From the NCBI GenBank assembly GCA_002418265.1, contig DIDS01000009.1:58764-122763 (forward strand): DNA of 64,000 bases. The letters are read 5' to 3'. Below the pieces are notes generated by a model, which made no database searches, was not told the origin of the DNA, and was given only the letters and a program-made list of their open reading frames with translations. The position numbers and the translations under genes were made by a program. Positions 4,691-63,574 of the stretch are shown piece by piece. Numbering within the stretch: position 1 is the stretch's first letter; each line of letters starts with the position of its first letter. The stretch comes from Acidimicrobiia bacterium UBA5794. GTDB taxonomy: Bacteria; Actinomycetota; Acidimicrobiia; Spongiisociales; UBA5794.

Positions 4691-5290
4691 GTGGCCACAA
4701 AGCGAAGCCCCAAGAAGATCACAGGATCACTGATCGCCGGAGCACTCCTTGTGCCGCTGACCGCCGTCGCCGCTGCGGCGCTGGTCGGGTCCATCACCAA
4801 CGCACAGGGTGCCGAGGCAGCGTCCCCGACACCGGTCACCATGACTGTCGAACGGCCAGCCACGACACCATCAGCAACACCGGAATCGGACACGGAAGCC
4901 ACCATCGCCGCCTGCACATCGGGCGTCGAGACACTCCTTGCTGCTGAACGCGACGGGACAATCGATCCACTCCAGACTGCCGCACTCGATGCTCTGCGCC
5001 AGATCTGTGAGCAAGAAGGAATGGCAATCGACGGTCCCCCGCTTCCCGAGCCCGTGGTCAAGGTCGTGACCGTGAACCAGGCCGCGCCGGCCGGTGGGCA
5101 GGGCGAGAATCTGGCATGTTCCGACGACGACGATGCCTATGACGACGACGATGCATACGACGACGACGATGCATACGACGACGAGTGCGATGACGTCGAT
5201 GATCACCATGACGACGACCATGACCATGGTGATCACCATGACGATGATCACCATGATGACGGCGGCCACGATGACGAGGACGACGACTGA
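4691..5290 (+). CDS. secreted protein with acidic His/Asp-rich C-terminal tail (putative metal-binding)
   Basis: GTG at 4691 is preceded by aaaggag. Has a signal peptide (KKITGSLIAGALLVPLTAVAAAALVG) and four Cys. The tail reads DDDDAYDDDDAYDDDDAYDDECDDVDDHHDDDHDHGDHHDDDHHDDGGHDDEDDD. The ORF track places the start at 4640. Confidence 0.55.
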   Translation: MATKRSPKKITGSLIAGALLVPLTAVAAAALVGSITNAQGAEAASPTPVTMTVERPATTPSATPESDTEATIAACTSGVETLLAAERDGTIDPLQTAALDALRQICEQEGMAIDGPPLPEPVVKVVTVNQAAPAGGQGENLACSDDDDAYDDDDAYDDDDAYDDECDDVDDHHDDDHDHGDHHDDDHHDDGGHDDEDDD

Positions 5291-5975: not shown

Positions 5976-6814
5976 TCGTCGACAAGCTCTCTGCGATGGG
6001 GACCACGTTCGAGACGCACACCGCATCCGGTGGGGAAGCCGTTGCGGTCCGACACCGCATCGCACGGCTCGAAGAACGGTTCAGCCGCTTCCTGCCCACC
6101 AGTGAGCTGACGCACATCAACACATCGGAAGGAGGCTGGCACGCCGTTTCCAAGCCGATGAGCCGTGTGCTTGAGGCAGCAGCAATGGTCAAGGATCGAA
6201 CGGATGGACTCGTTGATGTCGGTGTTGGGGCAGCGGTCGTGGCATGGGGATATTCAAAATCGTTCGACGATCTGTCGTCCCGTATCCAACGCAGCAGCCA
6301 CGGGTCACAAACTGGGTGGAAGTTGCGCGATGGAGCCGTGCGGTTGGAGGTTGGAACCAAGCTTGATCTCGGTGGCATCGCAAAGGGCTGGACATGCGAC
6401 GAGATCGTCGAATCGGGTATGGCACGCATGGTGTCCGCCGGCGGCGACCTCCGATCATCCGATCCCGACGTTGTCGTCGAAGTCGTGGACCACCTCAATG
6501 CCCCGGTTGCAGATATCCACGTCGGCCGGGGTGCCTTGGCGACGAGCTCCAGAATGAGACGTACGTGGATGACCGATGCAGGTCCAGCGAATCATCTGAT
6601 CGATCCACGGACGATGCGACCGGTGACATCGCCGATCACCCAAGCAACGGTGGTGGCCGAAACAGCTGTGGAGGCCGAGGCTGGCGCCAAGGCTGTCCTC
6701 CTTCATGGTGTGGACGGTCTGGCATGGGCAGATCAGCAGCCCTGGATCCGCCAGGCGGTTGCCGTCTGGCATGACGGATCGGTCTTTGCCACCAAGGATC
6801 GGCGTGCGGCATGA
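5972..6814 (+). CDS. apbE: FAD:protein FMN transferase (ApbE family)
   Basis: ApbE signature LDLGGIAKGW plus conserved N- and C-terminal blocks. GTG start overlaps the previous stop. Confidence 0.8.
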   Translation: MIVDKLSAMGTTFETHTASGGEAVAVRHRIARLEERFSRFLPTSELTHINTSEGGWHAVSKPMSRVLEAAAMVKDRTDGLVDVGVGAAVVAWGYSKSFDDLSSRIQRSSHGSQTGWKLRDGAVRLEVGTKLDLGGIAKGWTCDEIVESGMARMVSAGGDLRSSDPDVVVEVVDHLNAPVADIHVGRGALATSSRMRRTWMTDAGPANHLIDPRTMRPVTSPITQATVVAETAVEAEAGAKAVLLHGVDGLAWADQQPWIRQAVAVWHDGSVFATKDRRAA

Positions 6815-7416
6815 ACGTCACGTGGATCATCGTTCGAGGATCGGGGATCGCTGCCTTCGTGTTGCTGAGTGCGTCGATGGTCTGGGGATTGTGGATCTCG
6901 ACGAAGACCTTTGGTCGGGCAGTGAACGCAAAAGGACTCCAGTGGCTCCATGAGTCCCTCGGTCTTGCGGCAGTCGCCGCCACCGTCATTCACATGGTGT
7001 CGCTGTCCATGGACGAATTCATCGATTTTGGCTGGTGGGACATCATGATCCCCGGTGTCGCAACGTGGAAGCCGTTGGCGGTGTCCCTCGGTGTTGTCTC
7101 GTTCTGGTCAATACTCCTTGTCTCAGCAAGCTTTTATGCGAAGCGGTGGATCAGCCAGAGCGCATGGAGATCGATTCACTATCTGTCATTCGGGGCGTTC
7201 CTCGCCGCCCTGGCGCACGGGGTGATGGCGGGCACAGACTCGGGAACACCATGGATGACAGCCCTGTATGTGGGAGCGGGAGTGGCCGTCGCCGCCCTCA
7301 CTGCCATCCGTCTGGTGGCATCGTCGCGAAGTCAGGCGTCAGAAGTCACACGACCGACGACCGATGACCGACGAGCGATGACCGATGACCGAAAGCAGAA
7401 CTCGGAAGTCGGGTAG
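6811..7416 (+). CDS. ferric-reductase-like transmembrane heme b protein (YedZ/MsrQ-like FRD domain)
   Basis: About 200 aa with 6 TM segments. Two bis-His pairs with 12-13-residue spacing (HESLGLAAVAATVIH and HYLSFGAFLAALAH) are typical of the FRD family. The last 28 aa are encoded by heptamer repeats. Confidence 0.65.
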   Translation: MNVTWIIVRGSGIAAFVLLSASMVWGLWISTKTFGRAVNAKGLQWLHESLGLAAVAATVIHMVSLSMDEFIDFGWWDIMIPGVATWKPLAVSLGVVSFWSILLVSASFYAKRWISQSAWRSIHYLSFGAFLAALAHGVMAGTDSGTPWMTALYVGAGVAVAALTAIRLVASSRSQASEVTRPTTDDRRAMTDDRKQNSEVG

Positions 7417-8266: not shown

Positions 8267-9469
8267 TCAGGACACTGGCTCCGAGCGTGTTACGAATCGT
8301 GAGACCGACAGTTCGTTGAAGACCGCCGCAAGCGCTACGGCGACCGCCAGTACCACGAGTGGCCAAAAATACGAGCCGAATGCATCCCTCCCGACACCGA
8401 TCAAGGTGGGAGCAACCCCACCCGCGACTGCTGCCGCGGACCATTGCTTCCCCATGACGGACCCGAAGTCATCACCTGCGAACCAGTCATTCATGATGAC
8501 CGGCCGCAGCGGAAGCGTGAACCCGAAGAAGATGCCGAAGAATGCAAAGTGCGCCACCATCACGACCTCGGGCGTTCCGATGATCGCAAGGATCATGGCA
8601 CCGACCAGCCCAACAACGCTCCAGGTGAGAATCGTTGTCGCTGCTACATGATGTGCCAAGCGGGGCGCCAGATACCTCCCCGGAAATGTCAGAACTCCTG
8701 AAACACCGGCCAGAATCGCGATCAACGCCACGTCAAAGCCCTGCTCCTCGAACACAGCCACGCGGTGAAACAGCATGCTGTTCATCGATGCGAACAACAG
8801 CACGACGGCGAGGGTCTGAAAGCCGAGGCGTCGATCCTCGACGAATCGTCTCCATCTGACCGGTGGCGGTGGTTTGGGACGATGGGTGGAAGGCTTGTCC
8901 TTGGGAAGGAACACGATCGATACGATGAGACCAGCGACAAGGATCGCAGTCCCGTAGGCAAATGTGGTCTGCCTCCAACCGAATTGGTCGACGGCATACC
9001 CCGTCAGTGGAAGGAACACGGGGCCTGCAAGACCCCCGATGACCACCAAGAGTGCAATGGCGTGGTTGCGCTTGTTCGCTCCGACCCACAATCCGACGGC
9101 AACGAATGCAGGTTCATACAACGTCATCGCTTGTGCTGGCCCAAGCAAAAGCCAAAACGCAAGGACGACAATCCAACCGCTGTCGGTCAGTGAAACGGTC
9201 GCAAGCGCCAGGAAGGCAAGCACGGCACCGAGGATCATCAGACCCCGCACGGCATGATGGTCCGCCCATCGACCCACCCGTGGAGCGACCAGCCCAGCGA
9301 TCACCACGGAACCACCGAACGCGAGGGACAGCAGGGAAATGGAGAACTCTCCTCCAGCTGCGTTCTCGGTGAGCAGCACCGACATCGCATACAGCTCGAC
9401 GCCGAAGGCGATGAACACGAAGGCGGCGATGGCCACAACGGTGGCACGGGGATATCGGTCAGGCATCAT
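8267..9469 (-). CDS. MFS transporter
   Basis: 400 aa, about 12 TM segments, MFS-like GRWADHH loop motif. Confidence 0.8.
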   Translation of the reverse strand: MMPDRYPRATVVAIAAFVFIAFGVELYAMSVLLTENAAGGEFSISLLSLAFGGSVVIAGLVAPRVGRWADHHAVRGLMILGAVLAFLALATVSLTDSGWIVVLAFWLLLGPAQAMTLYEPAFVAVGLWVGANKRNHAIALLVVIGGLAGPVFLPLTGYAVDQFGWRQTTFAYGTAILVAGLIVSIVFLPKDKPSTHRPKPPPPVRWRRFVEDRRLGFQTLAVVLLFASMNSMLFHRVAVFEEQGFDVALIAILAGVSGVLTFPGRYLAPRLAHHVAATTILTWSVVGLVGAMILAIIGTPEVVMVAHFAFFGIFFGFTLPLRPVIMNDWFAGDDFGSVMGKQWSAAAVAGGVAPTLIGVGRDAFGSYFWPLVVLAVAVALAAVFNELSVSRFVTRSEPVS

Positions 9470-9481
9470 GCGAGCCTAGGT

Positions 9482-9537
9482 CGGAAGTCAGAAGTCAGAA
9501 GTCAGATGACCGATGACCGATGACCGAAGTCAAGAGT
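9482..9537. repeat. heptamer microsatellite locus B
   Basis: cggaagt cagaagt cagaagt cagatga ccgatga ccgatga ccgaagt, between two minus-strand genes. Confidence 0.85.
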
Positions 9538-10642: not shown

Positions 10643-12391
10643 ATGCACCAGATTTCGCTTGAAGCCATCGACAAGGCATATCCCGAGACCGTTGTCCTCG
10701 AAGGCGCTTCACTCTCGATTTTGGCTGGTCAAAGAATTGGGCTGATCGGCCAGAACGGGTCTGGCAAGTCAACGCTCCTTGGGATCATCGGTGGATCTGT
10801 GGAACCAGATGGGGGCGAAATCGTCCGAGCATCTGGCCTGCGGGTCGCATCCCTGGCCCAGGATCCGACCTTTCCGACCGGGTCCACCGTCGAAGATGCG
10901 GTGTCCTTCAGCCGCGAAGCCATCTCGCTCGCGGACAGGCTTGGCCTCAAGGAGCCAACGAAGCTCGTCGCCGAGTTGAGCGGCGGTCAACGCAAGCGTC
11001 TCGCCCTCGCCGTCGCCCTCGCCACCGACTGTGATCTGCTCATTCTTGATGAGCCGACCAACCATCTCGATGTTGACACGATCGATTGGCTTGAGGACTA
11101 CATCGAGGGACTCACATCGACACTGCTCCTCATTACCCACGACCGATATCTGCTGGACCGAGTTGTTGACACCATCGTTGAGGTGTACGACCACAAGCTC
11201 TATCCACACCGTGGCACGTACGGGCAGTATCTCGAGGCGCGAGCGGCAAGGGAAGCCATCGAGAATGCGAATACGAAGCGGCTCAAACAGCGAATCAAGA
11301 CCGAGCTTGCTTGGCTCAGAAAGAGCCCAAAAGCACGAACGTCGAAATCTCGCCAACGAACCACACGGGCGACCGAGATTGTGGACGCTGGCCTGCCACG
11401 ACAGCGCCCGGAACTGGTCATGACGTTCCCCCCTCGACGAATCGGCTCAAAGGTCGTCAACCTCCACAACGTGGGCAAGACATACGGTGACCATGTTGTG
11501 CTGCAGGGAATCACCCATCTACTCCCTCCCGACGCACGGATCGGCATCGTCGGGCCGAATGGGGCAGGCAAGACCACATTGCTTGCCCTCATGGCGCAGA
11601 GGATTGAGCCGGATACCGGAAAGGTCGTGGTGGGTTCAACAATCGTGCCAGGTTGGTACGGACAGGACCCAACGCCGATTCCTCCCGAGACGAGGCTGAT
11701 CGATGCAGTCCGGGATCACGCCGATGAGGTTCAGATCACGGACCGCAAGACAGCGACGGCAGCGAAGCTCCTTGAAATGTTCCAATTCACACACGAGCAG
11801 CAGCAGTCAACCGTTGGCGATCTTTCCGGCGGAGAGCGAAGACGGCTCGAACTTCTGTTCGTGTTGATGGGGACACCGAATCTCCTGCTCCTCGACGAAC
11901 CGACCAACGATCTGGATCTCGATACGCTGCACGCCCTTGAGGATTACCTCGATGGATGGCAAGGAGCCATGGTCGTGGCAAGTCACGACCGCTACTTCCT
12001 TGACCGTGTCTGCCGCGACATCTTCTCGATCCAGCCAGACGGCAGCGTCCAGCACCATCCCGGCGGCTGGTCGGCATACTGGACCGATCGGCAGAATCTC
12101 AACGATGCGCCGACCGATCGAACGACCGCGACAAAAACCCGACCGAAGGCGCCGCGAACCAAGCTGACGTTCAACGATCAAAGGGAGTTGAAGCAGCTGA
12201 CCGCACAGATCCCACGACTCGAGGCCGAGCGTTCAAGGCTTGAACACGATCTCGCCGGGGCAGGAACCGACATCGACGAGGTCAGCCGACTCGGCGCCGA
12301 GCTCGCCACCACCATCACCACCCTCGACGCCGCAGAAACCCGCTGGCTCGAGTTGACCGAACTCGCAGAGAAACTTTCCGATGACCGATGA
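10643..12391 (+). CDS. ABC-F family ATPase (Uup/EttA-like, two ABC domains plus C-terminal coiled coil)
   Basis: Two Walker A motifs (GQNGSGKST, GPNGAGKTT) and two signature motifs (LSGGQRKRL, LSGGERRRL). No TM domain. The stop codon lies inside a GACCGAT repeat. Confidence 0.85.
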   Translation: MHQISLEAIDKAYPETVVLEGASLSILAGQRIGLIGQNGSGKSTLLGIIGGSVEPDGGEIVRASGLRVASLAQDPTFPTGSTVEDAVSFSREAISLADRLGLKEPTKLVAELSGGQRKRLALAVALATDCDLLILDEPTNHLDVDTIDWLEDYIEGLTSTLLLITHDRYLLDRVVDTIVEVYDHKLYPHRGTYGQYLEARAAREAIENANTKRLKQRIKTELAWLRKSPKARTSKSRQRTTRATEIVDAGLPRQRPELVMTFPPRRIGSKVVNLHNVGKTYGDHVVLQGITHLLPPDARIGIVGPNGAGKTTLLALMAQRIEPDTGKVVVGSTIVPGWYGQDPTPIPPETRLIDAVRDHADEVQITDRKTATAAKLLEMFQFTHEQQQSTVGDLSGGERRRLELLFVLMGTPNLLLLDEPTNDLDLDTLHALEDYLDGWQGAMVVASHDRYFLDRVCRDIFSIQPDGSVQHHPGGWSAYWTDRQNLNDAPTDRTTATKTRPKAPRTKLTFNDQRELKQLTAQIPRLEAERSRLEHDLAGAGTDIDEVSRLGAELATTITTLDAAETRWLELTELAEKLSDDR

Positions 12392-12445
12392 CCGATCTCA
12401 GAAGTCAGAAGTCCGGAATCCAATGACCGGCACCTCTCGGTCATC
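12380..12445. repeat. heptamer microsatellite locus C plus inverted GACCG hairpin
   Basis: gatgaccgatgaccgatctcagaagtcagaagtccgg, followed by aatgaccggcacctctcggtcatcgg (inverted tgaccg/cggtca). Confidence 0.8.
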
Positions 12446-12508
12446 GGTCTTCGGTCGTCATGGCCTTGGCGGCGGTAGGGTTTCGTTCACACGGGAAGGC
12501 AGGTACAC

Positions 12509-14497: not shown

Positions 14498-14533
14498 GTC
14501 TGACGTCAGACGTCAGAAAGAGAGCTGAAAGCT
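14498..14533. repeat. palindromic CAGACGT repeat plus GCTGAAAGCT motif (locus D)
   Basis: gtctgacgtcagacgtcagaaagagagctgaaagctg. GTCTGACGTCAGAC is a perfect 14-bp palindrome. Lies between convergent pepO and the nfu-like gene. Confidence 0.8.
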
Positions 14534-14551
14534 GTGAGCCAAAGTGCGTCG

Positions 14552-15241: not shown

Positions 15242-16498
15242 ATGGAAACCGTCGTCATCGTTGCCAGCTGCGAAAGCTACCGAACGGGTGATTTCATTGC
15301 TGCCGCCCGTGCACAGCGTCTTGCCGTTGTGGTTGCGACCGATGCGGACTCGCCCTTTGACACCCACGTCGACCAAGTCGTCGAGATAGATCTCGACGAT
15401 GTGGCTGGCGGCGCGGCAGCGATCGCCACGGCTGTACCCGATGCTGTTGCCGTCGTTGCGATCGACGATCAGGGTGTCAGGGTCGCCGGTGCGGCAAACG
15501 CAGCACTCGGTCTCAAGAGCAACCCACCATCGAGTATCGACGCCACCCGTGACAAACTCGTCATGCGGGGTCTGCTCGCAGCGGCTGGAGTCTCGCAGCC
15601 GGGTTTCACATCCGTGCAACCGGGAGATCTGCGTCGATGTCTTGAAGAGGTGGGCTTACCGGCAGTCGTCAAGCCGACGACTCTTGCCGCATCACGCGGG
15701 GTGATCCGTATTGACGACATCGCGCGGGCCGATGAGATCGAGCGCCGCGTCCGAAACATCGCGTACCAGGGCGGGATTCCTCCGACCGAGTCCCTCATCG
15801 TTGAGCAGTACATCGCGGGTGACGAGATGGTTGTCGAGGGGATGATCGTCGATGGCTCACTTGAGGTGCTCGCTTTGATCGACAAACCGGTGCCACTGGT
15901 CGGACCGTTCTTCGAAGAGACGATGTTCGTTTCACCCTCACGCCAATCCGACGCGGTCCAGGAGGCGGTCATCCAGGTGGTCGCGGAAGCCGTTGAGGCG
16001 ATCGGCATCGTCACCGGACCGATCCACGCCGAGATCAGAATCGATGAAACTGGAACACCGTTTGTCATTGAGGTTGCCGCCCGATCAATCGGCGGCCTCT
16101 GCGGGCGGGCGCTGACGTTTGGGCTCCTCGCTGAACCACTTGAAAGTGTTGTGATCCGCAGCGCAACGGGGCGAACAGCAATCGAGCAACCCACCAGGCC
16201 CGCAACCGGTGTGTTGATGCTGCCCATCCCGGGGGCGGGGCGCCTTACCGACATCGAGGGAGTCGACGCGGCCCTTGCTATCGAGGGCATCGACGCCGTC
16301 GACATCACGATTCCGATCGGGCGCTCGGTCACACCGCTCCCCGAGGGTGACCGCTATCTCGGGTTTGTGTTTGCAACCGGGTTGACACCCGATGACGTTC
16401 AGCACGCCCTCGCTCGCGCCGCGGCGGTCATCGAGCCCGTGATCGACGGAGAGTACGTCGAAAGCGACGGACAGTCAGAGGCAGGAAAGTTGGGCTAG
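15242..16498 (+). CDS. ATP-grasp domain protein (carboxylate-amine ligase-like, function unknown)
   Basis: Pre-ATP-grasp plus ATP-grasp fold blocks (LPAVVKPTTLAASRGV, EQYIAGDEMVVEGMI, IHAEIRIDETGTPFVIEVAARS). Start at METVVIVAS. Confidence 0.65.
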   Translation: METVVIVASCESYRTGDFIAAARAQRLAVVVATDADSPFDTHVDQVVEIDLDDVAGGAAAIATAVPDAVAVVAIDDQGVRVAGAANAALGLKSNPPSSIDATRDKLVMRGLLAAAGVSQPGFTSVQPGDLRRCLEEVGLPAVVKPTTLAASRGVIRIDDIARADEIERRVRNIAYQGGIPPTESLIVEQYIAGDEMVVEGMIVDGSLEVLALIDKPVPLVGPFFEETMFVSPSRQSDAVQEAVIQVVAEAVEAIGIVTGPIHAEIRIDETGTPFVIEVAARSIGGLCGRALTFGLLAEPLESVVIRSATGRTAIEQPTRPATGVLMLPIPGAGRLTDIEGVDAALAIEGIDAVDITIPIGRSVTPLPEGDRYLGFVFATGLTPDDVQHALARAAAVIEPVIDGEYVESDGQSEAGKLG

Positions 16499-16506
16499 AA
16501 CCGGGG

Positions 16507-17040
16507 TCAGAAGTCAGAAGTCAGACGTCAGAGTCGGTTCAAACCCGTCCCCCCGGTCTTGCGGGGGGACGCGGAGCAACGCATGCACAGCAGGCGCTGC
16601 GTAGCAGGGGGGCGTCCCAGCCTGTCGCAATACCAGAGCCCCCCTGCCCCTCGCTACGCTCGGCGCGTCCCCCCGCAAGCGGGAGGACGGGAGAAGTCAG
16701 AGTCGGTTCTAAACCCGTCCCCCCGGTCTTGCGGGGGGACGCGGAGCAACGCATGCACAGCAGGCGCTGCGTAGCAGGGGGGCGTCCCAGCCTGTCGCAA
16801 TACCAGAGCCCCCCTGCCCCTCGCTACGCTCGGCGCGTCCCCCCGCAAGCGGGAGGACGGGAGAAGTCAGAGTCGGTTCTAAACCCGTCCCCCCGGTCTT
16901 CCGGGGGGACGCGGAGCAACGCATGCACAGCAGGGGTTGCATAGCAGGGGGCGTCCCAGCCTGTCGCAATACCAGAGCCCCCCTGCCCCTCGCTACGCTG
17001 TACTACCCAAACCGTCCGCCTGAAGGGGGGACGGGGGTTG
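16507..17040. repeat. heptamers plus 3 tandem copies of a 170-bp GC-rich hairpin-rich REP/MITE-like element (locus E)
   Basis: tcagaagtcagaagtcagacgtcagagtc, then units starting at 16528, 16697 and 16867 (period 169-170). Contains hairpins gtccccccggtcttgcggggggac and cgtccccccgcaagcgggaggacg. Copy 3 is diverged and supplies the CFA synthase C-terminus. Confidence 0.9.
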
Positions 17041-18255
17041 GGGCCTCTCGAACAGGATCTGATAGCCGTCGATGCGCCCCGTTCGGAACCCCGCCTCGCA
17101 ATACTCGAGGTAGTAGCGCCAGATGCGGTGGAAGGCCTCATCGAACACCGGGTCTTGTGCCACAATGTCGGGCCACGCTGCCTCAAAACGTCTCGCCCAT
17201 TCGTTGAGGGTCGCGGCATAGTCGTGACCGTGGCTCGCGGCCGACACCCACGACAGACCGGCCGCAGACGAAAGCTCCTTGAGCACCGAAAGCGACGGCA
17301 GTGCACCACCCGGAAAAATATAGGTTTTGATGAAATCTCGATACTTGAGCAGTGACTCGTAGAACCGTTCGTCGATTGTGATCACCTGCATCGCTGCCTT
17401 CCCTCCCGGAGGAAGGGCACGCGAAATCGCATGGAACAGCGGTGGCCAATTCGTCTCATCCACCGATTCGATCATCTCGATCGACACGACCTTGTCGTAC
17501 ATGGCCTGTTCGTGTCGGAAGTCCTGCAGCTTGATCTCCGTGCGATCGTCGAGTCCCGCTGCAGCAAGCCGTGCACGGGCATACCTGGCGTGTTCGGTTG
17601 ACAGGGTCAGCCCGGTCACGTGCACGCCGTATCGGCTCGCGGCATGCTCGGCGAAGCCGCCCCATCCGCACCCGATTTCGAGGACGCGGTCGCCCTCGGT
17701 CAGCTCGAGTAGCTGGCACAAGCGGTCGTATTTGCGTTCCTGGGCAGTCTCGAGGGAATCGTCAGGAGATTCGTACAACGCGGATGAATACGTCATTGAC
17801 GGGTCGAGCCACATCGCATAGAACTCGTTGCCGAGGTTGTAGTGGTCGGCCATTTCGTGGATTGCATCGCTTCGTAACTGCTGCGGGCGCTTGTCCCAGA
17901 TGTCGCGCAGGCGGTGCACCCACGCCCGGGACAGCAGAGCGTCGGACCGGGCGTCAAGATTGGCCGCTCCGACCTCGAGAAGTGTCGCCAGATCATCCGT
18001 TGTCCAGAAGCCATCGAAATAGGACTCCGCAAGACCGACCGAACCTTTCTTGATGAGCGATCTCAACATGCCCATCTCGTCGGCCACCGATATCGATGCC
18101 TGCGGCCCTTCACCGAATCCGACGAACTTGTCCGTGGTTGAGTCGGACCACCTGACGGTCAAGGTCCCGATGGTTAATCGATTGAAGATGCGGCGAAGGA
18201 CGTTTCTCGCCACCGACTGCGTCGTGTTTCCCACGGTGCAACCTCCCCTGTGCAC
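16993..18255 (-). CDS. cfa: cyclopropane-fatty-acyl-phospholipid synthase family SAM-dependent methyltransferase
   Basis: SAM motif VLEIGCGWGGFAEHAA. 420 aa with CFA/CMAS-type N- and C-terminal blocks. Confidence 0.85.
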   Translation of the reverse strand: MHRGGCTVGNTTQSVARNVLRRIFNRLTIGTLTVRWSDSTTDKFVGFGEGPQASISVADEMGMLRSLIKKGSVGLAESYFDGFWTTDDLATLLEVGAANLDARSDALLSRAWVHRLRDIWDKRPQQLRSDAIHEMADHYNLGNEFYAMWLDPSMTYSSALYESPDDSLETAQERKYDRLCQLLELTEGDRVLEIGCGWGGFAEHAASRYGVHVTGLTLSTEHARYARARLAAAGLDDRTEIKLQDFRHEQAMYDKVVSIEMIESVDETNWPPLFHAISRALPPGGKAAMQVITIDERFYESLLKYRDFIKTYIFPGGALPSLSVLKELSSAAGLSWVSAASHGHDYAATLNEWARRFEAAWPDIVAQDPVFDEAFHRIWRYYLEYCEAGFRTGRIDGYQILFERPQPPSPLQADGLGSTA

Positions 18256-18290
18256 GGGTACCGCTCCATCCGAAGATACTTGTTTGCCTG

Positions 18291-18418
18291 AAGACCGAGT
18301 ACCGATTACCGATTACCGACTTCCGACTTCCGACTTCCGACTGATGATCGCCGAAGTCCAACATCCCGCGTTGCCTCTTCTTTCCGGTCGGTCATCGGTC
18401 GTCGGACTTCGGACCTAG
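18291..18418. repeat. heptamer microsatellite locus F (ACCGATT/GACTTCC variants, contains an inverted copy)
   Basis: accgattaccgattaccgacttccgacttccgacttccgact...ttccggtcggtcatcggtcgtcggacttcggacc. ggtcatcggtc is the reverse complement of gaccgatgacc. Confidence 0.75.
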
Positions 18419-18427
18419 GCTCAATGC

Positions 18428-18850
18428 ATGCGTGACTCGACCGTCAAGTGGCTTTCTCGACTCCATTCCGGCATCTATCGGTTCACCGGTGGCCGTATCG
18501 GAACCCGGCTGGTCGACAACGACATGTTGCTGCTCACGACAACCGGGAGGACAACCGGGTCCCCGCACACCGTTCCACTCCTCTATTTGATGGATGGCTC
18601 CGATGTCATCGTGATCGCCTCATACGGCGGGCGACCAAGCGATCCGGACTGGTATCGGAACCTCCTCGTCGACACGACTGGAGAAGTACGCATCGGTGCG
18701 GTCTCTCACACCGTCCATGCGACCACCATGGACGACAACGAGCGAGACGAGTGGTGGCCTCGCATCGTGCATGCGTATTCGGAATATGAGACGTATCAGG
18801 CACGAACCGATCGTCAGATTCCGGTCGTCAGACTCGCCGCGACCGGCTGA
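18428..18850 (+). CDS. nitroreductase-family deazaflavin(F420)-dependent oxidoreductase (DDN-like)
   Basis: 140 aa with the typical blocks HSGIYRFTGGRIG, LLLTTTGRTTGSPHTVPLLY, VVIASYGGRPSDPDWYRNL. Confidence 0.8.
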   Translation: MRDSTVKWLSRLHSGIYRFTGGRIGTRLVDNDMLLLTTTGRTTGSPHTVPLLYLMDGSDVIVIASYGGRPSDPDWYRNLLVDTTGEVRIGAVSHTVHATTMDDNERDEWWPRIVHAYSEYETYQARTDRQIPVVRLAATG

Positions 18851-19544: not shown

Positions 19545-19576
19545 GCTGAAAGCAGAAGGCTGAAAGCTGAAAGCTC
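19545..19576. repeat. GCTGAAAGC motif cluster (locus G)
   Basis: gctgaaagcagaaggctgaaagctgaaagctc. The same motif recurs at 14523, 33551 and 59781. Confidence 0.7.
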
Positions 19577-24456: not shown

Positions 24457-24470
24457 ACGACGACCGGATT

Positions 24471-24617
24471 CAGAAGTCAGAAGTCAGAAGTCAGAAGTCA
24501 GAAGTCAGAAGTCAGAAGTCAGAAGTCAGAAGTCAGAAGTCAGAAGTCAGAAGTCAGAAGTCAGAAGTCAGACGTCAGAGGACCGATGACCGATGACCGA
24601 TGACCGATGACCGAATT
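24471..24617. repeat. microsatellite locus H: (CAGAAGT)x14 perfect, then CAGACGT, CAGAGGA, then (CCGATGA)x4
   Basis: Read directly: 14 consecutive perfect CAGAAGT copies at 24471-24568, followed by gaccgatgaccgatgaccgatgaccgatgaccg. Confidence 0.95.
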
Positions 24618-24654
24618 TAGGAGTCATGGAATCCGGCATACCTGGGTTTCCAAG

Positions 24655-24674
24655 GAACCCGGCTTGTCGGGTTC
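24655..24674. terminator. hairpin gaacccg-gcttgt-cgggttc (shared with locus I)
   Basis: 7-bp GC stem. Overlaps the stop of the minus-strand gene at 24673. A near-identical hairpin is at 29624-29642. Confidence 0.45.
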
Positions 24675-29483: not shown

Positions 29484-29526
29484 GTCTGGAGCTTACTGCC
29501 TGTGCACACGAGCGTTTCGCCGGGCA

Positions 29527-29623
29527 GTCAGACGTCAGACGTCAAGTGACCGATGACCGATGACCGATGACCGATGACCCAAGACCGAAGACCGAAGTCA
29601 AGGGTTCAGTCGCTGGACTCCAA
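29527..29623. repeat. heptamer microsatellite locus I
   Basis: cagacgtcagacgtcaagt, then (gaccgat)x5, then gacccaagaccgaagaccgaagtcaag. Confidence 0.85.
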
Positions 29624-29642
29624 GGAACCCGCTTCGGGTTCC
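29624..29642. terminator. hairpin ggaacccg-ctt-cgggttcc
   Basis: 8-bp stem. Paralogous to the hairpin at 24655. Confidence 0.45.
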
Positions 29643-29669
29643 CGAAGTCAGAAGCTGTGAGGTGAAAGC

Positions 29670-33339: not shown

Positions 33340-33565
33340 GTCACCCACCCCTTTCAGACGGAGCCCCTGCCCGCCCGGGGGCTTCGACGCGTGACAGATG
33401 CCGACGACCGACAACCGATAACCGACCTCAGAAGTCGGAGTCTGAATTCATTGGTCACCAGTCGGGCGACGGGCGGCCCCAACATAGCCGACAAGCTCAA
33501 CATCGTCCCACCCCCTTGCGGGAGGACGGGAAGAAGCGAGGTCAGACGCTGAGAGCTGAAAGCTC
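33340..33565. repeat. degenerate REP/MITE-like element plus heptamers (locus J)
   Basis: Contains gacgaccgacaaccgataaccgacctcagaagtc, cgtcccacccccttgcgggaggacgggaag and gctgagagctgaaagctc. Its 5' part is the reverse complement of the ttcgacgtcggaagcccccctgcccc core. Confidence 0.7.
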
Positions 33566-34882: not shown

Positions 34883-34934
34883 GATCGGATATCGGATTAC
34901 GAGAGCCAGACGTCAGACGTCAGACGTCCGATGT
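34883..34934. repeat. heptamer locus K (atcggat variants, then (CAGACGT)x3, then ccgatgt)
   Basis: gatcggatatcggattacgagagccagacgtcagacgtcagacgtccgatgtc. Contains the stop codon of the gene at 34913. Confidence 0.8.
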
Positions 34935-35362
34935 CGCCGTTTGACCTCTTCGGCGATTGCCTCATCGCTGTATTGGAGAAGGATCGGGTCCCAGGGTTTG
35001 CCGATGATCGGTGCCTCCTCAGCCTCGGCGAGGAGTTCGACAACATGATCCCGCAACGTGCGAGCCCACGCTCTGCCCTTCGCCGAAACGATTGGTGTGG
35101 TCGTTGCATCACTGTTGACACGGATGACCGAAGCTTCGATCTGAGGATTCGCTCGAGATCCACGCTCGCCATACAACAAGATGATGGAGCCAATCGGCAC
35201 ATCCTGGATCCCACCGGTGGCGATGAACTCGCCTTCGAAGGCCCATCCCGTGACAAGCGTCTCATCGACACCCGATACGATCTTCGCCCAATTCTTCCTT
35301 CGCTCATCCCCCACCAGGGGCACGTCAATCGGGACAAGAATTGGTTCATTCATGCAGGACAC
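34913..35362 (-). CDS. hypothetical protein (beta-rich, possible MOSC/PK-barrel-like)
   Basis: 149 aa with no confident family. The C-terminus and stop are encoded by CAGACGT repeats. Confidence 0.35.
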   Translation of the reverse strand: MSCMNEPILVPIDVPLVGDERRKNWAKIVSGVDETLVTGWAFEGEFIATGGIQDVPIGSIILLYGERGSRANPQIEASVIRVNSDATTTPIVSAKGRAWARTLRDHVVELLAEAEEAPIIGKPWDPILLQYSDEAIAEEVKRRHRTSDV

Positions 35363-39772: not shown

Positions 39773-39843
39773 TCCTTCCCAGTACGCATCGACGTCCGAT
39801 TGCTGACTCCGGTGATCGGTCATCGGATGACGGTCATCGGCTA

Positions 39844-40431
39844 CTACTGGTCGACGCGGGTCCGTTTGAACTCGTTCACGTTCGTCCATGACAGCATGCC
39901 GAGGACTCGATCGAGATCAGCGCGCTGATGACGCTCCATGAACCGCACGAACACCGCCTCGCCGTCAGCAATGAAGGTCGGGACTCCGAACACGGCGTGG
40001 GTCTCGACAAGGTCGGTGTGTTCGGCGGCAAGTGTCTTGGCTGGAATGCCGGACGACACCTGTCCGGCGATCTCGCCGGCGTCAAGGCCTACAGACTCCG
40101 CAATCTGCGACAAGACGGAAGCGTCTCCGATCTCGAGCAGGTCATCGTGCTTGGCGTTGTAGACCGCGACATGGAATGCTCGGAATGAATCGGGAAAGCC
40201 ATCGCGAACGGCAAGGGACCACAACAGAGCTCGTACGCCTCGCGGAAGATCTCCAGCAGGATCGTGTTCCCACACCGGCTGGTCCCCGACTTCCAGGTGG
40301 TTCTGAGAAAGCGAGAACGGGCGAAACGTCACGTCGTAGTCGGCCCCATCGTCAAGAGCCTCAACGACTGCCTCGTTTCCGATCCGAGAAAAGGGGCAGA
40401 GGTAGTCGTATGTGATTGCAAACCTGGTCAT
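39844..40431 (-). CDS. DsbA-like thioredoxin-fold protein (HCCA isomerase/DSBA family)
   Basis: N-terminal FAITYDYLCPFSRIG and C-terminal FGVPTFIADGEAVF blocks. Confidence 0.65.
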   Translation of the reverse strand: MTRFAITYDYLCPFSRIGNEAVVEALDDGADYDVTFRPFSLSQNHLEVGDQPVWEHDPAGDLPRGVRALLWSLAVRDGFPDSFRAFHVAVYNAKHDDLLEIGDASVLSQIAESVGLDAGEIAGQVSSGIPAKTLAAEHTDLVETHAVFGVPTFIADGEAVFVRFMERHQRADLDRVLGMLSWTNVNEFKRTRVDQ

Positions 40432-41202: not shown

Positions 41203-41243
41203 GTGGCTTCTCCTGAGGTCCAGGAACCGCACACTACAGATAT

Positions 41244-41345
41244 CAGACGTCAGAAGTCAGAAGTCAGACGGTCCCCCTGCGGAGTAGGGCCTGCTGCGCA
41301 GGCATTGCTCCGCGTCCCCCCGGAAACCGGGGAGACGGGATAACC
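41244..41345. repeat. heptamers plus single REP-like unit (locus L)
   Basis: cagacgtcagaagtcagaagtcagacg, then gtccccctgcggagtagggcctgctgcgcaggcattgctccgcgtccccccggaaaccggggagacggga. This is the reverse-complement orientation of the locus E hairpin region. Confidence 0.85.
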
Positions 41346-49637: not shown

Positions 49638-51956
49638 ATGAGTTTCTATCTCGGTGGACCCATAGACGACGCTGGCGAACGTGTCAATGGGAACACCTTC
49701 CAATACGACCCATCAGATTTGACGACGCACGGCGTGATCGTGGGAATGACGGGTTCGGGAAAAACGGGACTCGGCATCATCTTTCTCGAAGAGGCGCTAC
49801 GAGCCGGAATCCCAACCCTCGTCATCGACCCGAAGGGGGACATGACGAACCTTCTCCTCACGTTCCCGGATCTGTCTCCGACCGACTTCGAACCGTGGGT
49901 TGATGCCGCCGCTGCTGAAAAGGACGGTCGAACCTCACATGAGGAAGCCACCGCGGAAGCAGCGAAGTGGAAAACGGGTCTTGGCTGGTGGGACCTCAAT
50001 GCCGACGCCATCGCCAGCTTGCGCGAGCGAGCCGGAATGACGATCTACACGCCGGGATCGAATGCCGCAAATCCATTGAACATCGTGGGCAATCTCAACC
50101 CTCCGGTTCTTTCTTGGGACACGGATTCCGAGACCATCCGTGATGAGATCGAAGGCTTCACATCTGGACTTCTCGGTTTGATCGGCATAGACGCAGATCC
50201 GATTTCGTCACGTGAACACATACTGATCGCCAACCTTGTGGAACGAGCCTGGCGTGAAGGAACCACCCTCGACATCGGAACGATCATCACCCAGATCGCC
50301 AACCCGCCGATGCGCAAGCTTGGGGTGTTTGAGGTCGACCAGTTCTTTCCCGAGAAGGACCGCATGAAGCTGGCCATGCAACTCAATGGTCTTCTTGCGT
50401 CGCCATCGTTCGCCGCTTGGATGGCTGGTAACGACCTCGATATCGAGTCGCTCCTGTGGAAGAACGGAAAGCCGCAAGCGGCAATCATGTATCTCGCCCA
50501 CCTATCGGACATGGAACGCCAGTTCGTCGTCACCATGATCTACACAAGGCTCATCACGTGGATGCGATCACAGCCAGGAAGCAGCGACCTGCGAGTACTC
50601 GCCTACATGGATGAGGTCTTCGGATTCGTTCCTCCCACCGCGCAGCCGCCAGCCAAGAAGCCGATCCTCACATTGCTCAAGCAGGCGAGGGCCTTTGGTG
50701 TGGGCATGCTCTTGTCAACCCAGAATCCTGTCGATCTCGACTACAAGGCAATGTCGAATGCAGGAACTTGGTGTATCGGCCGACTCCAAACTGAGCGTGA
50801 CAAGGCACGGATCATCGAAGCTCTCACAACCTCGTCCGGAGCGATAGACACCGCCGAGATGGACACAACGATTTCCAAGCTTCCCAAACGTGGTTTCGTG
50901 ATCCACAACACAAGGGAAAAGGTGCCGACCACGATCACCACCCGATGGGCGATGTCGTATCTCAGAGGACCGATGACACGGGAAGAGGTGTCGCGCTTCA
51001 AGGACACTGCAACGGTGAAGGCGGCGAAGCCTCCATCACCGGCCGCCGACCCGACCCCGGATCCCACGAGCATTTCGGGACCTACGAGGACCCCCGAGGT
51101 CGCAGAAGGAGTTGCGTCCGTTGCGATCCATCCGGCCGCCCCATGGCGTGCGATCGTGGGCGACTCCGACGCCGGAACCGCGTACCGCGCGGCCTTCGCT
51201 GTCGATGTTGAGATGCGGTTCGACGAATCAAGGATCGGTGTCGACCACGTAGAGAGCTGGGAAGCCATCGTGATTGACCCAACGATCGATGATCTGTCAG
51301 ACCTCATCGAGATCGACTATGACACGCGAGACTTCATCGAGCCAGACAGCGCCATTCCCTTTCTGCCGACCGATGTGCCGATATCTCAACCGGGATTCTT
51401 CAACGACCTCAAGGCACGCGTCAAGAAGCATCTGGACACAAACGAGACGCTTGAGCTCTCACGAAATGCCGACCTCAAACTGGTTTCTCGTCCTGGTGAA
51501 CCCGAGAGCGACTTTCTTGTTCGCTGCCAGGACGCCGCCAACAATGCAGCCGATGCCGAAAAGGCCAAAGCTATTTCCAAGTACGAGACTCGCCTGAGGC
51601 GTGTTCGGCGCGCCTATGACGATGCTGTTGCTGACGCAAGCCTGGCTGAGCAGGCTGCTGCCGACGAGCAGCGCTCCGCCCTTCTCGGCTTCGGTCTCGA
51701 TCTCCTTACGGGCCGCAAGGCGCGACTTCCAGGCTCGCGATCTCGAACGACGCAGGATCGTGCCAGGCGCGCACAGTCCAAGATCGACTCCAAACGTGCA
51801 GAGTACGAAGACCTCACCGCTGAAATGGAGGACGCGTGTGTCGCAATCGACGACAAGTGGGATACCAAGGTCTCCAACATCGAACCGGTGACAATCGGCC
51901 TTGAGGCCGACGACATCCGCGTCACCGATGTCAAAGTGGTCTGGATACGGACCTAA
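49638..51956 (+). CDS. HerA/FtsK-superfamily P-loop ATPase (DUF853/YjgR-like) with roughly 290-aa C-terminal coiled-coil extension
   Basis: Walker A VIVGMTGSGKTGLG, Walker B LAYMDEVFGF, and the conserved LLSTQNPVDLDYKAMSNAGTWCIGRLQTERDK block. 772 aa. Confidence 0.7.
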   Translation: MSFYLGGPIDDAGERVNGNTFQYDPSDLTTHGVIVGMTGSGKTGLGIIFLEEALRAGIPTLVIDPKGDMTNLLLTFPDLSPTDFEPWVDAAAAEKDGRTSHEEATAEAAKWKTGLGWWDLNADAIASLRERAGMTIYTPGSNAANPLNIVGNLNPPVLSWDTDSETIRDEIEGFTSGLLGLIGIDADPISSREHILIANLVERAWREGTTLDIGTIITQIANPPMRKLGVFEVDQFFPEKDRMKLAMQLNGLLASPSFAAWMAGNDLDIESLLWKNGKPQAAIMYLAHLSDMERQFVVTMIYTRLITWMRSQPGSSDLRVLAYMDEVFGFVPPTAQPPAKKPILTLLKQARAFGVGMLLSTQNPVDLDYKAMSNAGTWCIGRLQTERDKARIIEALTTSSGAIDTAEMDTTISKLPKRGFVIHNTREKVPTTITTRWAMSYLRGPMTREEVSRFKDTATVKAAKPPSPAADPTPDPTSISGPTRTPEVAEGVASVAIHPAAPWRAIVGDSDAGTAYRAAFAVDVEMRFDESRIGVDHVESWEAIVIDPTIDDLSDLIEIDYDTRDFIEPDSAIPFLPTDVPISQPGFFNDLKARVKKHLDTNETLELSRNADLKLVSRPGEPESDFLVRCQDAANNAADAEKAKAISKYETRLRRVRRAYDDAVADASLAEQAAADEQRSALLGFGLDLLTGRKARLPGSRSRTTQDRARRAQSKIDSKRAEYEDLTAEMEDACVAIDDKWDTKVSNIEPVTIGLEADDIRVTDVKVVWIRT

Positions 51957-52229
51957 CGGTCAGACATCAGACATCAGACGGCCCCCCTGCGGAGCAGCGC
52001 CTGCTGCGCAGGCGTTGCTCCGCGTCCCCCCGGTAGCCGGGGGGACGGGAAAAAGTCCAACACCGTCCTCCCGCTTGCGGGGGGACGCGCCGAGCGCAGC
52101 GAGGAGCAGGGGGGCTTCCGACGTCTGACCTCTGGAAGACGGGGCTCGCAGGCTCGCACGCCCCCCTGATTCGACTACGTAGGATTAGTCCCTCCTGAAG
52201 GGGGGACGGGAGATCGGAAGATCTCGAAG
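51957..52229. repeat. heptamers plus composite REP/MITE-like element (locus M)
   Basis: cagacatcagacatcagacg, then a copy related to locus L, then a reverse-complement copy of the 114-bp unit of locus N (tcctcccgcttgcggggggacgcgccgagcgcagcgaggagcaggggggcttccgacgtc; ggaagacggggctcgcaggctcgcacgccc). Confidence 0.9.
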
Positions 52230-59482: not shown

Positions 59483-59810
59483 ATCTGACGTCAGACAACC
59501 CTGATCTGTCCCCCCGCAAGCGGGAGGACGGGAAGAGGGCGTGCGAGCCTGCGAGCCCCGTCTTCCAGCGGGGGACAGATTCGACGTCGGAAGCCCCCCT
59601 GCCCCTCGCTGCGCTCCTCGCGTCCCCCCGCAAGCGGGAGGACGGGAAGAGGGCGTGCGAGCCTGCGAGCCCCGTCTTCCAGCGGGGGACAGATTCGACG
59701 TCGGAAGCCCCCCTGCCCCTCGCTGCGCTCGGCGCGTCCCCCCGCAAGCGGGGGGACGGGAAGAAAAGGCGACGTCAGAAGCTGAAAGCCGGAAGCTGAA
59801 AGCTCCTAAG
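59483..59810. repeat. heptamer plus 2.3 tandem copies of a 114-bp REP/MITE-like unit plus GCTGAAAGC motifs (locus N)
   Basis: Units start at 59508, 59622 and 59736 (period 114). The core ttcgacgtcggaagcccccctgcccctcgctgcgctc-gcgtccccccgcaagcgggaggacgggaag is shared with locus E. The element ends with gacgtcagaagctgaaagccggaagctgaaagctc. Confidence 0.9.
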
Positions 59811-63482: not shown

Positions 63483-63574
63483 CGGAGGCGGACGGGAATC
63501 GAACCCGCCAGGGAACTTTCGCCCCCTCGTCGGTTTTGAAGACCGCGACGTCCACCAGGCACGCAGTCGCCTCC
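63483..63574 (-). tRNA. selC: candidate tRNA-Sec (selC), anticodon UCA
   Basis: The reverse complement reads GGAGGCG-AC-...GGTCTTCAAAACCG...GGCGGGTTCGATTCCCGTCCGCCTCC-G. It has a 7-bp acceptor stem, a T-loop GGTTCGATTCC, a 7-nt anticodon loop CUUCAAA identical to E. coli tRNA-Sec, a long variable arm and is 92 nt in total. CCA is not encoded. Hand-folded only. Confidence 0.55.

Follow-up and report, generated by a model that had tools for sequence, protein, structure and literature searches.

Heptanucleotide arrays in the intergenic spacers of Acidimicrobiia bacterium UBA5794 probably change by slipped-strand mispairing

Heptad arrays in the spacers of a 64-kb window

In a 64,000-nucleotide stretch of the genome of Acidimicrobiia bacterium UBA5794 (assembly GCA_002418265.1, contig DIDS01000009.1, positions 58,764 to 122,763; hereafter the window, numbered from its first nucleotide), the spacer behind an operon of the Bmp/ABC nucleoside type holds a long tandem array of 7-nt units (heptads). 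This main array starts 13 nt past the stop codon (24456) of the last permease gene of the operon. It keeps an unbroken 7-nt register from 24470 to 24616, as established from the sequence itself, Tandem Repeats Finder (TRF) and an exact-run scan. Its order is 14.7 perfect TCAGAAG units (24470-24572; the same repeat as 14 copies of CAGAAGT), the variants TCAGACG and TCAGAGG, four ACCGATG units and one ACCGAAT, the last five being equivalent to 4.9 units of GACCGAT. The initial annotation, made from the sequence alone, had described 14 copies of CAGAAGT followed by 4 of CCGATGA behind the nucleoside ABC operon, and this description was accurate. We refer to the TCAGAAG, GACCGAT and GCTGAAA types of unit as families A, B and C, respectively. 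The A array (24470-24581, plus strand), with its two variants at the gene-distal end, is thus followed in the same register by the B array (24582-24616, plus strand). Beyond them, a degenerate hairpin module (containing CCAAGGAACCCGGCTTGTCGGGTTC; 24617-24672), common to 29600-29650 and to the corresponding spacer of relatives, runs up to where a minus-strand gene, itself a weak SprT-like match, has its stop codon.

About 15 more loci in the window hold A- or B-type units or the third unit, GCTGAAA, giving one locus per ∼3-4.5 kb and occupying ∼9% of intergenic bases. All twelve further loci listed in the initial annotation are present, 11 of them clear and one (59483) weak, with ∼2 units. The C family (14520, 19550, 33539, 59779) and the reverse-orientation copies (12436, 18387, 39791, 53139) had been overlooked.

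Period 7 was the sole enriched non-triplet period in the window. The exact-run scan returned 13 runs of period 7 and 0-3 for each other period between 4 and 12, and relaxed scoring returned 14 period-7 loci and none for periods 4, 5, 8, 10, 11 and 13. Matches to TCAGAAGTCAGAAG with at most two mismatches numbered 34, against 0.38 expected, and 34 was reached in none of 100 shuffles. The arrays lie almost only in spacers and mainly at the ends of transcription units: 687 of 757 period-7 bases (91%) are intergenic in a window that is 11.5% intergenic, which bears out the earlier placement of the arrays after stop codons or between genes. Arrays occur in 6 of 9 convergent, 4 of 10 minus-minus and 3 of 8 divergent spacers, and in 1-2 of the 18 plus-plus spacers, most of which lie within operons.

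Every block that combines A and B units is a single heptad array in which the unit type changes without loss of phase and chimeric units such as TCAGATG and ACCGAAG stand at the junctions. The two heptamers had earlier been fitted to one degenerate consensus, C-N-G-A-N-G-N. This is a correct in-register description but weak proof of relatedness, because by a binomial calculation two random heptamers agree in four or more of the seven positions, at one rotation or another, with p ∼0.4. Better evidence that the units are related comes from the uninterrupted register and from the chimeras at the junctions. Perfect units lie next to the gene, and variants (TCAGACG and TCAGAGG/TCAGAGT) away from it, in the arrays at 16507 and 24470.

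The arrays match no Rfam family, the only Rfam match in the whole window being a tRNA-Sec gene at 63484-63574. Between 29 and 49 kb, a scan for consensus promoters and terminators placed none at arrays or hairpin modules, gave counts no higher than in shuffled sequence, and found no T-tailed terminator coincident with an array. The units are contiguous and lack spacers, unlike a CRISPR array. We also considered fail-safe stop codons and rejected them, since the strand with TGA in every frame is the one that the upstream gene does not read.

Variation among populations, strains and species

The window was compared with contig JAOSJN010000001.1 (2.73 Mb) of assembly GCA_027494075.1 (hereafter the NCBI genome), two contigs of Joint Genome Institute (JGI) metagenome 3300029304, and Logan assemblies of ∼10 SRA runs. 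Over 20,954 bp, the NCBI genome and the window showed no mismatch and a single gap, which corresponded to exactly one heptad in the longest array (15 copies versus 14). The two represent distinct populations, as an insertion of the IS1380 type is found only in the NCBI genome. That insertion encodes a DDE transposase (PF13701, E = 1e-37, apparently frameshifted; L137 of the NCBI assembly, 16924-18620) and lies beyond the tRNA-Sec gene (63484-63574, minus strand). It begins at ∼63627 and is absent from the window and the JGI contig, so it is polymorphic among populations. The extra 1.7 kb that it adds to the NCBI assembly contains no repeats, and the transposase gene is unrelated to the arrays.

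In a strain ∼98.5% identical to the window, the 11-unit length of the array at 29527-29603 is preserved. The array differs at four places, and at three of these a unit has become a type already present in that array; the flanking ∼95 nt contain one substitution. Three related species (∼83% nucleotide identity) carry the same unit families in the same spacers and orientations. Copy number differs among them, being 2, 3 and 5 for the TCGGTCA array that precedes the F420H2 gene, and species at this distance also differ in the presence or absence of whole array blocks. Whole-unit length polymorphism, a trait of long simple sequence repeats (LSSRs), is therefore seen both as 15 versus 14 and as 2, 3 and 5 copies, in assembled sequences rather than in reads.

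In the ∼83% relatives a 454-aa amidohydrolase gene stands convergent to the permease gene (L256, 6955-8437; L257, 6955-8446; L258, 4501-5992). The window genome lacks this gene at 24457-24672, where a 150-nt array stands in its place, which suggests a deletion or rearrangement at an array.

At greater distances (79-84% permease protein identity), unrelated heptad units often follow the orthologous permease stop codon, namely CAGTCAG, AGTCCCC, GTCCCTC, TCCGCCA, TTGTCGT and GGTTGTC, and period 7 is again the sole recurrent non-triplet period. In one such relative (L190, 1235-1300) the stop codon is directly followed by (AGTCCCC)n and (GTCCCTC)n, of which AGTCCCC is the C-strand of the Nostoc heptamer discussed below. 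In another (L187, 3463-3540), (GCAGTCA)n is followed by a G+C-rich hairpin like that of the window. Judged by these alignments, it is the period that is conserved across distant relatives and not the sequence of the unit.

We conclude from these comparisons of assembled sequences that turnover in the arrays, by gain or loss of whole units and by exchange of one unit type for another, greatly outpaces change in the surrounding DNA. The initial annotation had offered an active slipped-strand or recombination-prone repeat family as one explanation. The unit-step length differences between populations and species support it, as do the unit shuffling in a near-identical strain and the replacement of the relatives' gene by the main array.

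CAGAAGT arrays beyond the lineage

An exact scan for (CAGAAGT)x4 with one genome per species returned at least 120 loci across about ten phyla. Long perfect heptamer arrays had been called rare in bacterial chromosomes; these loci of at least four copies contradict that statement, as does the report that heptamers are the commonest class of long simple repeat (Mrazek 2007, as cited in PMC4679880 and PMC4692102). Carriers among the matches listed include Cyanobacteria, Acidobacteriota, Nitrospirota, Verrucomicrobiota, Planctomycetota, Bacteroidota, Ignavibacteria, Desulfobacterota and others, with G+C contents of 32-71%. Cultivable organisms are among the carriers, namely Crocosphaera watsonii WH 8501, Moorena producens and Flagellimonas species. 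The 832 kb of sequence around these matches contains 246 period-7 arrays and at most 13 of any other period, and the commonest co-occurring units, CAGGAGT and CAGAGGT, are one substitution from CAGAAGT. Nothing but decayed heptads is common to the flanks of the matches listed in different phyla, and we therefore reject a common mobile backbone across phyla. GACCGAT was not found among the 120 CAGAAGT loci listed and, on the basis of these searches, appears to be lineage-specific.

In viral contigs CAGAAGT forms 22 loci, compared with 3 and 9 for two control heptamers of the same composition and 1 for GACCGAT. Because the control heptamers also form arrays there, CAGAAGT is best seen as a frequent species of a general phenomenon and not as a unique signal. 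A full-text literature search for CAGAAGT and its rotations found no paper, nor did searches on the identifiers of sample and assembly.

Polarity and strand

Within the window, the 5′ end of the TCAGAAG strand adjoins the boundary of a gene, at either its stop or its start. The distance is 1-13 nt for the stop codons at 14497, 16498, 24456 and 51956 and ∼10-56 nt for the minus-strand start codons at 9469, 41232, 29483 and 34856. The same polarity was observed across phyla: among the matches listed, the gene on the 5′ side of the array was the closer one in 45 of 64 cases (p = 0.0016), irrespective of gene orientation, with no preference for the direction of transcription (19 '++' versus 17 '--'). 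In this set convergent spacers outnumbered divergent ones (21 versus 7), and an inverted partner array within 250 nt lay downstream in 14 of 108 cases and upstream in none. The arrays therefore read 5′ to 3′ away from the nearest gene, a rule already published for the heptamers of Xanthomonas and Nostoc.

With regard to the chromosomal strand, A arrays in the window are on the plus strand in a ratio of 10:0 at up to one mismatch and 11:3 at up to two mismatches. When local GC skew was used as a proxy for the replication strand at 100 cross-phylum loci, the link was weak (62:38), with a sign opposite to that in the window and confounded by gene direction.

Predicted structure and adjoining hairpin modules

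Both strands of the array are predicted to be unstructured (-1.5 kcal/mol for 115 nt, z = +0.4). By contrast, a B array paired with an inverted B array (12378/12437 and 18293/18388) is predicted to form a strong hairpin; that formed by 12378-12396 and 12436-12459 has a predicted fold of -22.2 kcal/mol (z = -4.8). The heptad units contain no G-tracts, so the pattern of at least four tracts of at least three G that defines a G-quadruplex is lacking, and neither a G-quadruplex nor an i-motif can explain these arrays.

Many arrays are fused to G+C-rich double-hairpin modules that resemble repetitive extragenic palindromic (REP) sequences. For example, 41249-41343 and 51959-52053, each an array plus a REP-like module, are 87% identical over 95 nt. 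A typical convergent spacer reads stop codon, A(B) array, hairpin modules, C array, stop codon. The tandem repeats at 16523-16999 and 59508-59764 are made of such REP-like hairpins, e.g. GTCCCCCCGCAAGCGGGAGGAC, and related single hairpin modules occur in both orientations at 33506, 41271 and 51982-52217. The imperfect extragenic palindromes of ∼20-40 nt that characterize REPs and bacterial interspersed mosaic elements (BIMEs) have their counterpart in the adjacent G+C-rich modules; the heptad arrays themselves are direct repeats. No conserved 5′ tetranucleotide of REPs was identified in these modules, and the window encodes no Y1 transposase of the REP-associated (RAYT) type. Likewise, there are no terminal inverted repeats around the arrays, and flanks differ among loci and phyla, unlike those of miniature inverted-repeat transposable elements (MITEs).

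Comparison with known repeat classes

The arrays are heptanucleotide repeats of the LSSR class, akin to the cyanobacterial short tandemly repeated repetitive (STRR) sequences, and not a novel kind of element. In many free-living bacteria no long microsatellites are more common than heptanucleotide arrays. The class has been known since the STRRs and a 2007 LSSR survey (Mrazek, Guo and Shah). As that survey is summarized in PMC4679880 and PMC4692102, LSSRs have units of 5-11 nt, with heptanucleotides dominant, are mainly intergenic and sporadic across phyla, count Actinobacteria among the richest genomes, show no tie to virulence genes and are attributed to polymerase slippage. The arrays described here resemble LSSRs in being tandem, near-perfect, mainly intergenic heptanucleotides beyond chance length, as the 14.7 perfect units, the 13 exact period-7 runs and the 34 matches against 0.38 expected indicate. 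Period 7 is uniquely enriched in the window, in the relatives and around the cross-phylum loci listed. Nothing essential distinguishes them from LSSRs; what is new is the acidimicrobial host, the units and the very high local density. With STRRs they share 7-bp units, tandem amplification and many dispersed intergenic sites, but given the host, and since the units published for Calothrix and Nostoc do not include TCAGAAG, GACCGAT or GCTGAAA, we call them STRR-like and not members.

Close parallels are the GGGAATC arrays of Xanthomonas and the GGGGA(C/T)T arrays of Nostoc PCC 7120 (Rehm et al. 2015, PMC4692102), with which the STRR heptamers of heterocystous cyanobacteria may be grouped. These too have period 7, perfect arrays that reach at least 14 units, a strong non-coding bias, and a position within ∼50 bp of the ends of open reading frames (ORFs), downstream in sense or upstream in antisense orientation. 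Both systems show a depletion of arrays between divergent genes, inverted pairs capable of forming hairpins, length variation among related species and neighbouring genes without a common function. The present arrays differ in having no G-tracts, strands predicted to be unstructured and an actinobacterial host, in the concatenation of two to three unit families in one register, and in their fusion to REP-like hairpin modules.

The TAACTGA repeats of marine Beggiatoaceae, Cyanobacteria and Bacteroidetes (MacGregor 2015, PMC4679880) are likewise one intergenic heptamer in unrelated phyla with no evident vehicle; contigs often end in them, and some arrays lie a few nucleotides upstream of start codons. 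However, in Beggiatoaceae they have 2-6 copies and are mostly forward and just upstream of start codons (PMC4679880), whereas here the unit is another one, most arrays follow stop codons, and those next to starts are antisense. The (ATCTTTC)n tract in the 5′ untranslated region (UTR) of Haemophilus influenzae hmw1A and hmw2A also has a 7-nt unit and unit-step hypervariability, from 11 to more than 20 copies, and its heptad number is proven to tune expression through an RNA hairpin cleaved by RNase III (PMC12721329). That system comprises two loci beside a surface adhesin of a host-adapted pathogen (PMC12721329), in contrast to the dozens of loci here, which lie by housekeeping genes and mostly at their 3′ ends. 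Unlike contingency loci, the arrays are mostly after stop codons or between convergent genes, with neighbours such as ABC permease, M13 peptidase, HisA/F-family, IF-1 and sigma factor genes. Judging from their position, two arrays that lie 9-11 nt from start codons (9469 and 18428) could modulate expression. With REPs and BIMEs the likeness is confined to the modules beside the arrays, which are extragenic, palindromic, clustered or tandem and present in both orientations, giving mosaic spacers; it does not extend to the arrays, which are not palindromes.

The present case is new in its host lineage, units and density, in joining several unit families in one register, and in extending the polarity rule to another unit and many phyla. 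That rule, published for two unit families, now covers a third and about ten phyla. Since this is a dense actinobacterial example without G-tracts, a G-quadruplex cannot be the general explanation of heptad arrays. The locus also offers natural evidence of unit-step variation at three evolutionary depths.

Slippage and its alternatives

We think it probable that these are non-coding heptanucleotide microsatellites of the LSSR/STRR kind that change by slipped-strand mispairing and are set in spacers built as mosaics, G+C-rich hairpin modules included. An earlier proposal already invoked slippage of 7-nt units (Mrazek 2007, as cited in PMC4679880 and PMC4692102). When DNA is replicated or repaired, mispairing of slipped strands would add or remove 7-nt units and spread variants locally. 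The misalignment would need no hairpin, as the strands are predicted to be essentially structure-free, and the arrays would be tolerated only outside genes because 7 is not a multiple of 3. New perfect units are probably added at the gene-proximal 5′ end while older units decay distally, and such growth would account for the position of arrays right at gene boundaries and for their orientation away from these. Spacers and UTRs of variable length, hairpins at inverted arrays and broken short-read assemblies are likely consequences; the arrays are probably also sites of deletion or rearrangement. A gene-specific regulatory function is not required to explain the data.

Several observations weigh against this explanation. 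Slippage alone leaves the preference for 7 over the other non-triplet periods 5, 8, 10 and 11 unexplained, and it accounts neither for the fixed polarity of the arrays relative to the nearest gene nor for the recurrence of CAGAAGT in about ten phyla and its excess in viral contigs (22 versus 3 and 9). The retention of the A, B and C families at orthologous sites across 17% divergence could reflect selection on the sequence. Finally, the difference between 15 and 14 units could be a consensus error, given that the NCBI assembly has homopolymer errors.

A second explanation, which we consider unlikely, would make the heptads part of a small non-autonomous mobile or mosaic element (REP/BIME- or MITE-like) that spreads mainly by transposition or recombination, perhaps copied by a single-strand transposase, with slippage secondary. 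A arrays are indeed fused to shared non-heptad modules (87% over 95 nt), each unit of the 170-bp repeat opens with one A heptad, and a hairpin module follows arrays at 9530, 24617 and 29600 and is present in a relative too. The G+C-rich modules are palindromic, extragenic, clustered and in both orientations, as REPs are. IS200/IS605 elements target one strand at the replication fork, and the 10:0 strand bias of A-type arrays at up to one mismatch would fit such targeting; however, the bias drops to 11:3 at up to two mismatches. Moreover, the arrays lack terminal inverted repeats and target duplications, the window contains no Y1/RAYT transposase, many arrays (9481, 14498, 24470, 34905) have no REP module, and no flank is common to the arrays listed from different phyla. 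The differences between strains are in-place unit steps and not insertions or excisions. The earlier suggestion that the arrays are the remains of a small mobile element is thus supported in part, by the joining to shared modules (41249-41343 and 51959-52053); a cross-phylum flank, inverted terminal repeats and an associated transposase are lacking.

We regard as improbable that the arrays are multivalent sites for a sequence-specific DNA- or RNA-binding protein with a 7-nt recognition step, forming a dispersed regulatory or chromosome-organizing signal at transcription-unit boundaries. Three heptads make 21 bp, or two helical turns. Three unit families are kept in the same orthologous spacers and orientation at 83% identity, CAGAAGT occurs in many phyla and exceeds same-composition controls in viral contigs, and the arrays hold a fixed polarity relative to genes. 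The distance between array end and start codon is in some cases 9-11 nt, as proposed for TAACTGA (PMC4679880). On the other hand, among relatives with 79-84% protein identity the unit sequence is fully replaced and the period remains 7, and this turnover at constant period argues against a conserved sequence-specific binder. Copy number is unconstrained (2 to 15), there is no orientation preference with respect to transcription (19 versus 17), the neighbouring housekeeping genes are unrelated to one another, nothing encoded nearby is a candidate binding protein, and arbitrary control heptamers form arrays too. Of the protein-binding array that had also been proposed initially, the retention of unit families within the genus is in favour, and the turnover of units between lineages is against.

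It is quite improbable, in our judgement, that bacterial heptad arrays, instead of being passive products of slippage, are deposited in one direction, starting at gene ends, through a conserved process with 7-nt steps or by a protein shared or transferred among phyla. Such a process would be signalled by CAGAAGT in about ten phyla without shared flanks, by the closer gene on the 5′ side in 45 of 64 cases, by inverted partners in the ratio of 14 to 0, and by the validity of the rule for unrelated units in Xanthomonas and Nostoc.

Arrays in independent assemblies

The sequence of the JGI contigs agrees with the window at 100%, also in the arrays, and no short-read contig that reaches an array departs from this sequence on entering it. 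In seven runs the contigs all stop inside the main array, 41-43 nt beyond the stop codon of the permease gene; two contigs end inside the array at 9481-9536 (at 9517) and others at ∼29570, and both JGI contigs end within the 170-bp repeat at 16523-16999. Contigs from other samples read through shorter arrays with 100% identity. Assembly breaks at heptamer repeats have been reported for other units (PMC4679880, PMC12721329). Since the arrays are identical in independent assemblies and also break assemblies, we conclude that they are real; absence or collapse in independent assemblies had been named at the outset as the sign of an artefact, yet the full 14-unit array is present in a JGI contig and the NCBI genome has 15 units. 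The idea that the arrays arose in assembly or sequencing, which the stopping of short-read contigs inside arrays (main array, 9517, ∼29570) and the homopolymer errors of the NCBI assembly might suggest, is refuted by this identity, by the spanned shorter arrays, by the agreement of every contig and by the arrays at the same sites in related species.

Relative to the window, the NCBI assembly has indels of one base in homopolymers at 52044-52047 (G6/G5) and 58134 (C6/C5), which are typical of long-read consensus errors and bear on the trust to be placed in the 15-copy count. Because the arrays break short-read metagenome assemblies, they are a practical concern; they could also serve as variable-number tandem repeat (VNTR) markers for strain typing in this uncultured group.

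Individual array loci

Positions 7330-7393 (plus strand) hold three A-type units and then six degenerate B-type units within the final 90 nt of the annotated ORF 6811-7416. This ORF (plus strand, weak Ferric_reduct match) reads through the array and stops 23 nt beyond it, and the array may have remodelled the C-terminus of its product. The array at 9481-9536 (plus strand), read in register, comprises four A units (TCGGAAG, TCAGAAG x2, TCAGATG), three B units (ACCGATG x2, ACCGAAG) and TCAAGAG, and its 5′ end is 11 nt from the start codon (9469) of a minus-strand MFS gene. At 12376-12415 (plus strand), 2.7 B units followed by 2.3 A units overlap the stop codon (12391) of an ABC-F gene; an inverted B array of the TCGGTCA type at 12436-12459 (minus strand) is the hairpin partner of 12378-12396. 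Three A units (TCTGACG, TCAGACG, TCAGAAA) and then C-type GCTGAAA occupy 14498-14536 (plus strand) and overlap the stop codon of the M13 peptidase gene.

The four A units at 16505-16533 (plus strand; TCAGAAG x2, TCAGACG, TCAGAGT) begin 8 nt past the stop codon at 16498 and run into the 170-bp tandem repeat (16523-16999, 2.8 copies), which consists of G+C-rich REP-like hairpin modules, one A heptad opening each unit. A mixed array at 18293-18344 contains (ACCGATT)x3 and (CCGACTT)x4, the second unit being TCGGAAG on the minus strand. It is followed by a reverse B/A array at 18387-18419 (minus strand), which ends 9 nt upstream of the start codon (18428) of an F420H2 quinone-reductase-family gene and shares a CCTAGG flank with 9470-9480. 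A C array (GCTGAAA, 19550-19576, plus strand) lies ∼75 nt upstream of the Bmp gene and occupies the same place in two relatives.

Between the start of a HisA/F-family gene and the stop of the IF-1 gene, 29526-29603 (plus strand) reads A x2 (GTCAGAC), a GTCAAGT junction, B x7 (GACCGAT x4, GACCCAA, GACCGAA x2) and GTCAAGG. At 33401-33445 (plus strand), TRF and in-register reading gave 3.7 B-like units (CCGACRA) and then A remnants (TCAGAAGTCGGAGTCTGA). The C-type array at 33539-33565 (plus strand) is preceded by a REP-like hairpin (33506-33534) and abuts the stop codon (33566) of a minus-strand gene. TCGGATA x2 and (CAGACGT) x3.1 at 34885-34935 (plus strand) lie 28-56 nt from the start (34856) of a minus-strand YkuD-family gene, and a degenerate reverse B/A array at 39791-39845 (minus strand) abuts the stop (39844) of a minus-strand DSBA-family gene.

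At 41243-41343 (plus strand), four A units (41243-41270) are fused to a double-hairpin REP-like module (41271-41343; fold z = -3.5). The start codon of the PNP-family gene (41232) is uncertain, and hence so is its 10-nt distance to this array. A-type units (TCAGACA x2, TCAGACG) with a REP-like module at 51959-52053 (plus strand) begin 3 nt past the stop codon (51956) of a HerA-like gene. The mosaic convergent spacer at 59483-59805 (plus strand) holds a weak A remnant, a 114-bp repeat in 2.3 copies (59508-59764) and a C array (59779-59805) that abuts the stop codon of a minus-strand gene.

Other features of the window

The HerA-like gene (49638-51956, plus strand), directly upstream of an array and REP mosaic, encodes a 772-aa protein with a weak match to the HerA/DUF87 ATPases and few close homologues (a 90%-identity cluster of 3). 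ORF 4691-5290 (plus strand) contains a coding low-complexity repeat (5122-5260) with periods of 18 and 30 nt. Its protein has no Pfam match but includes an Asp/His-rich stretch, a composition that suggests it may bind metal.

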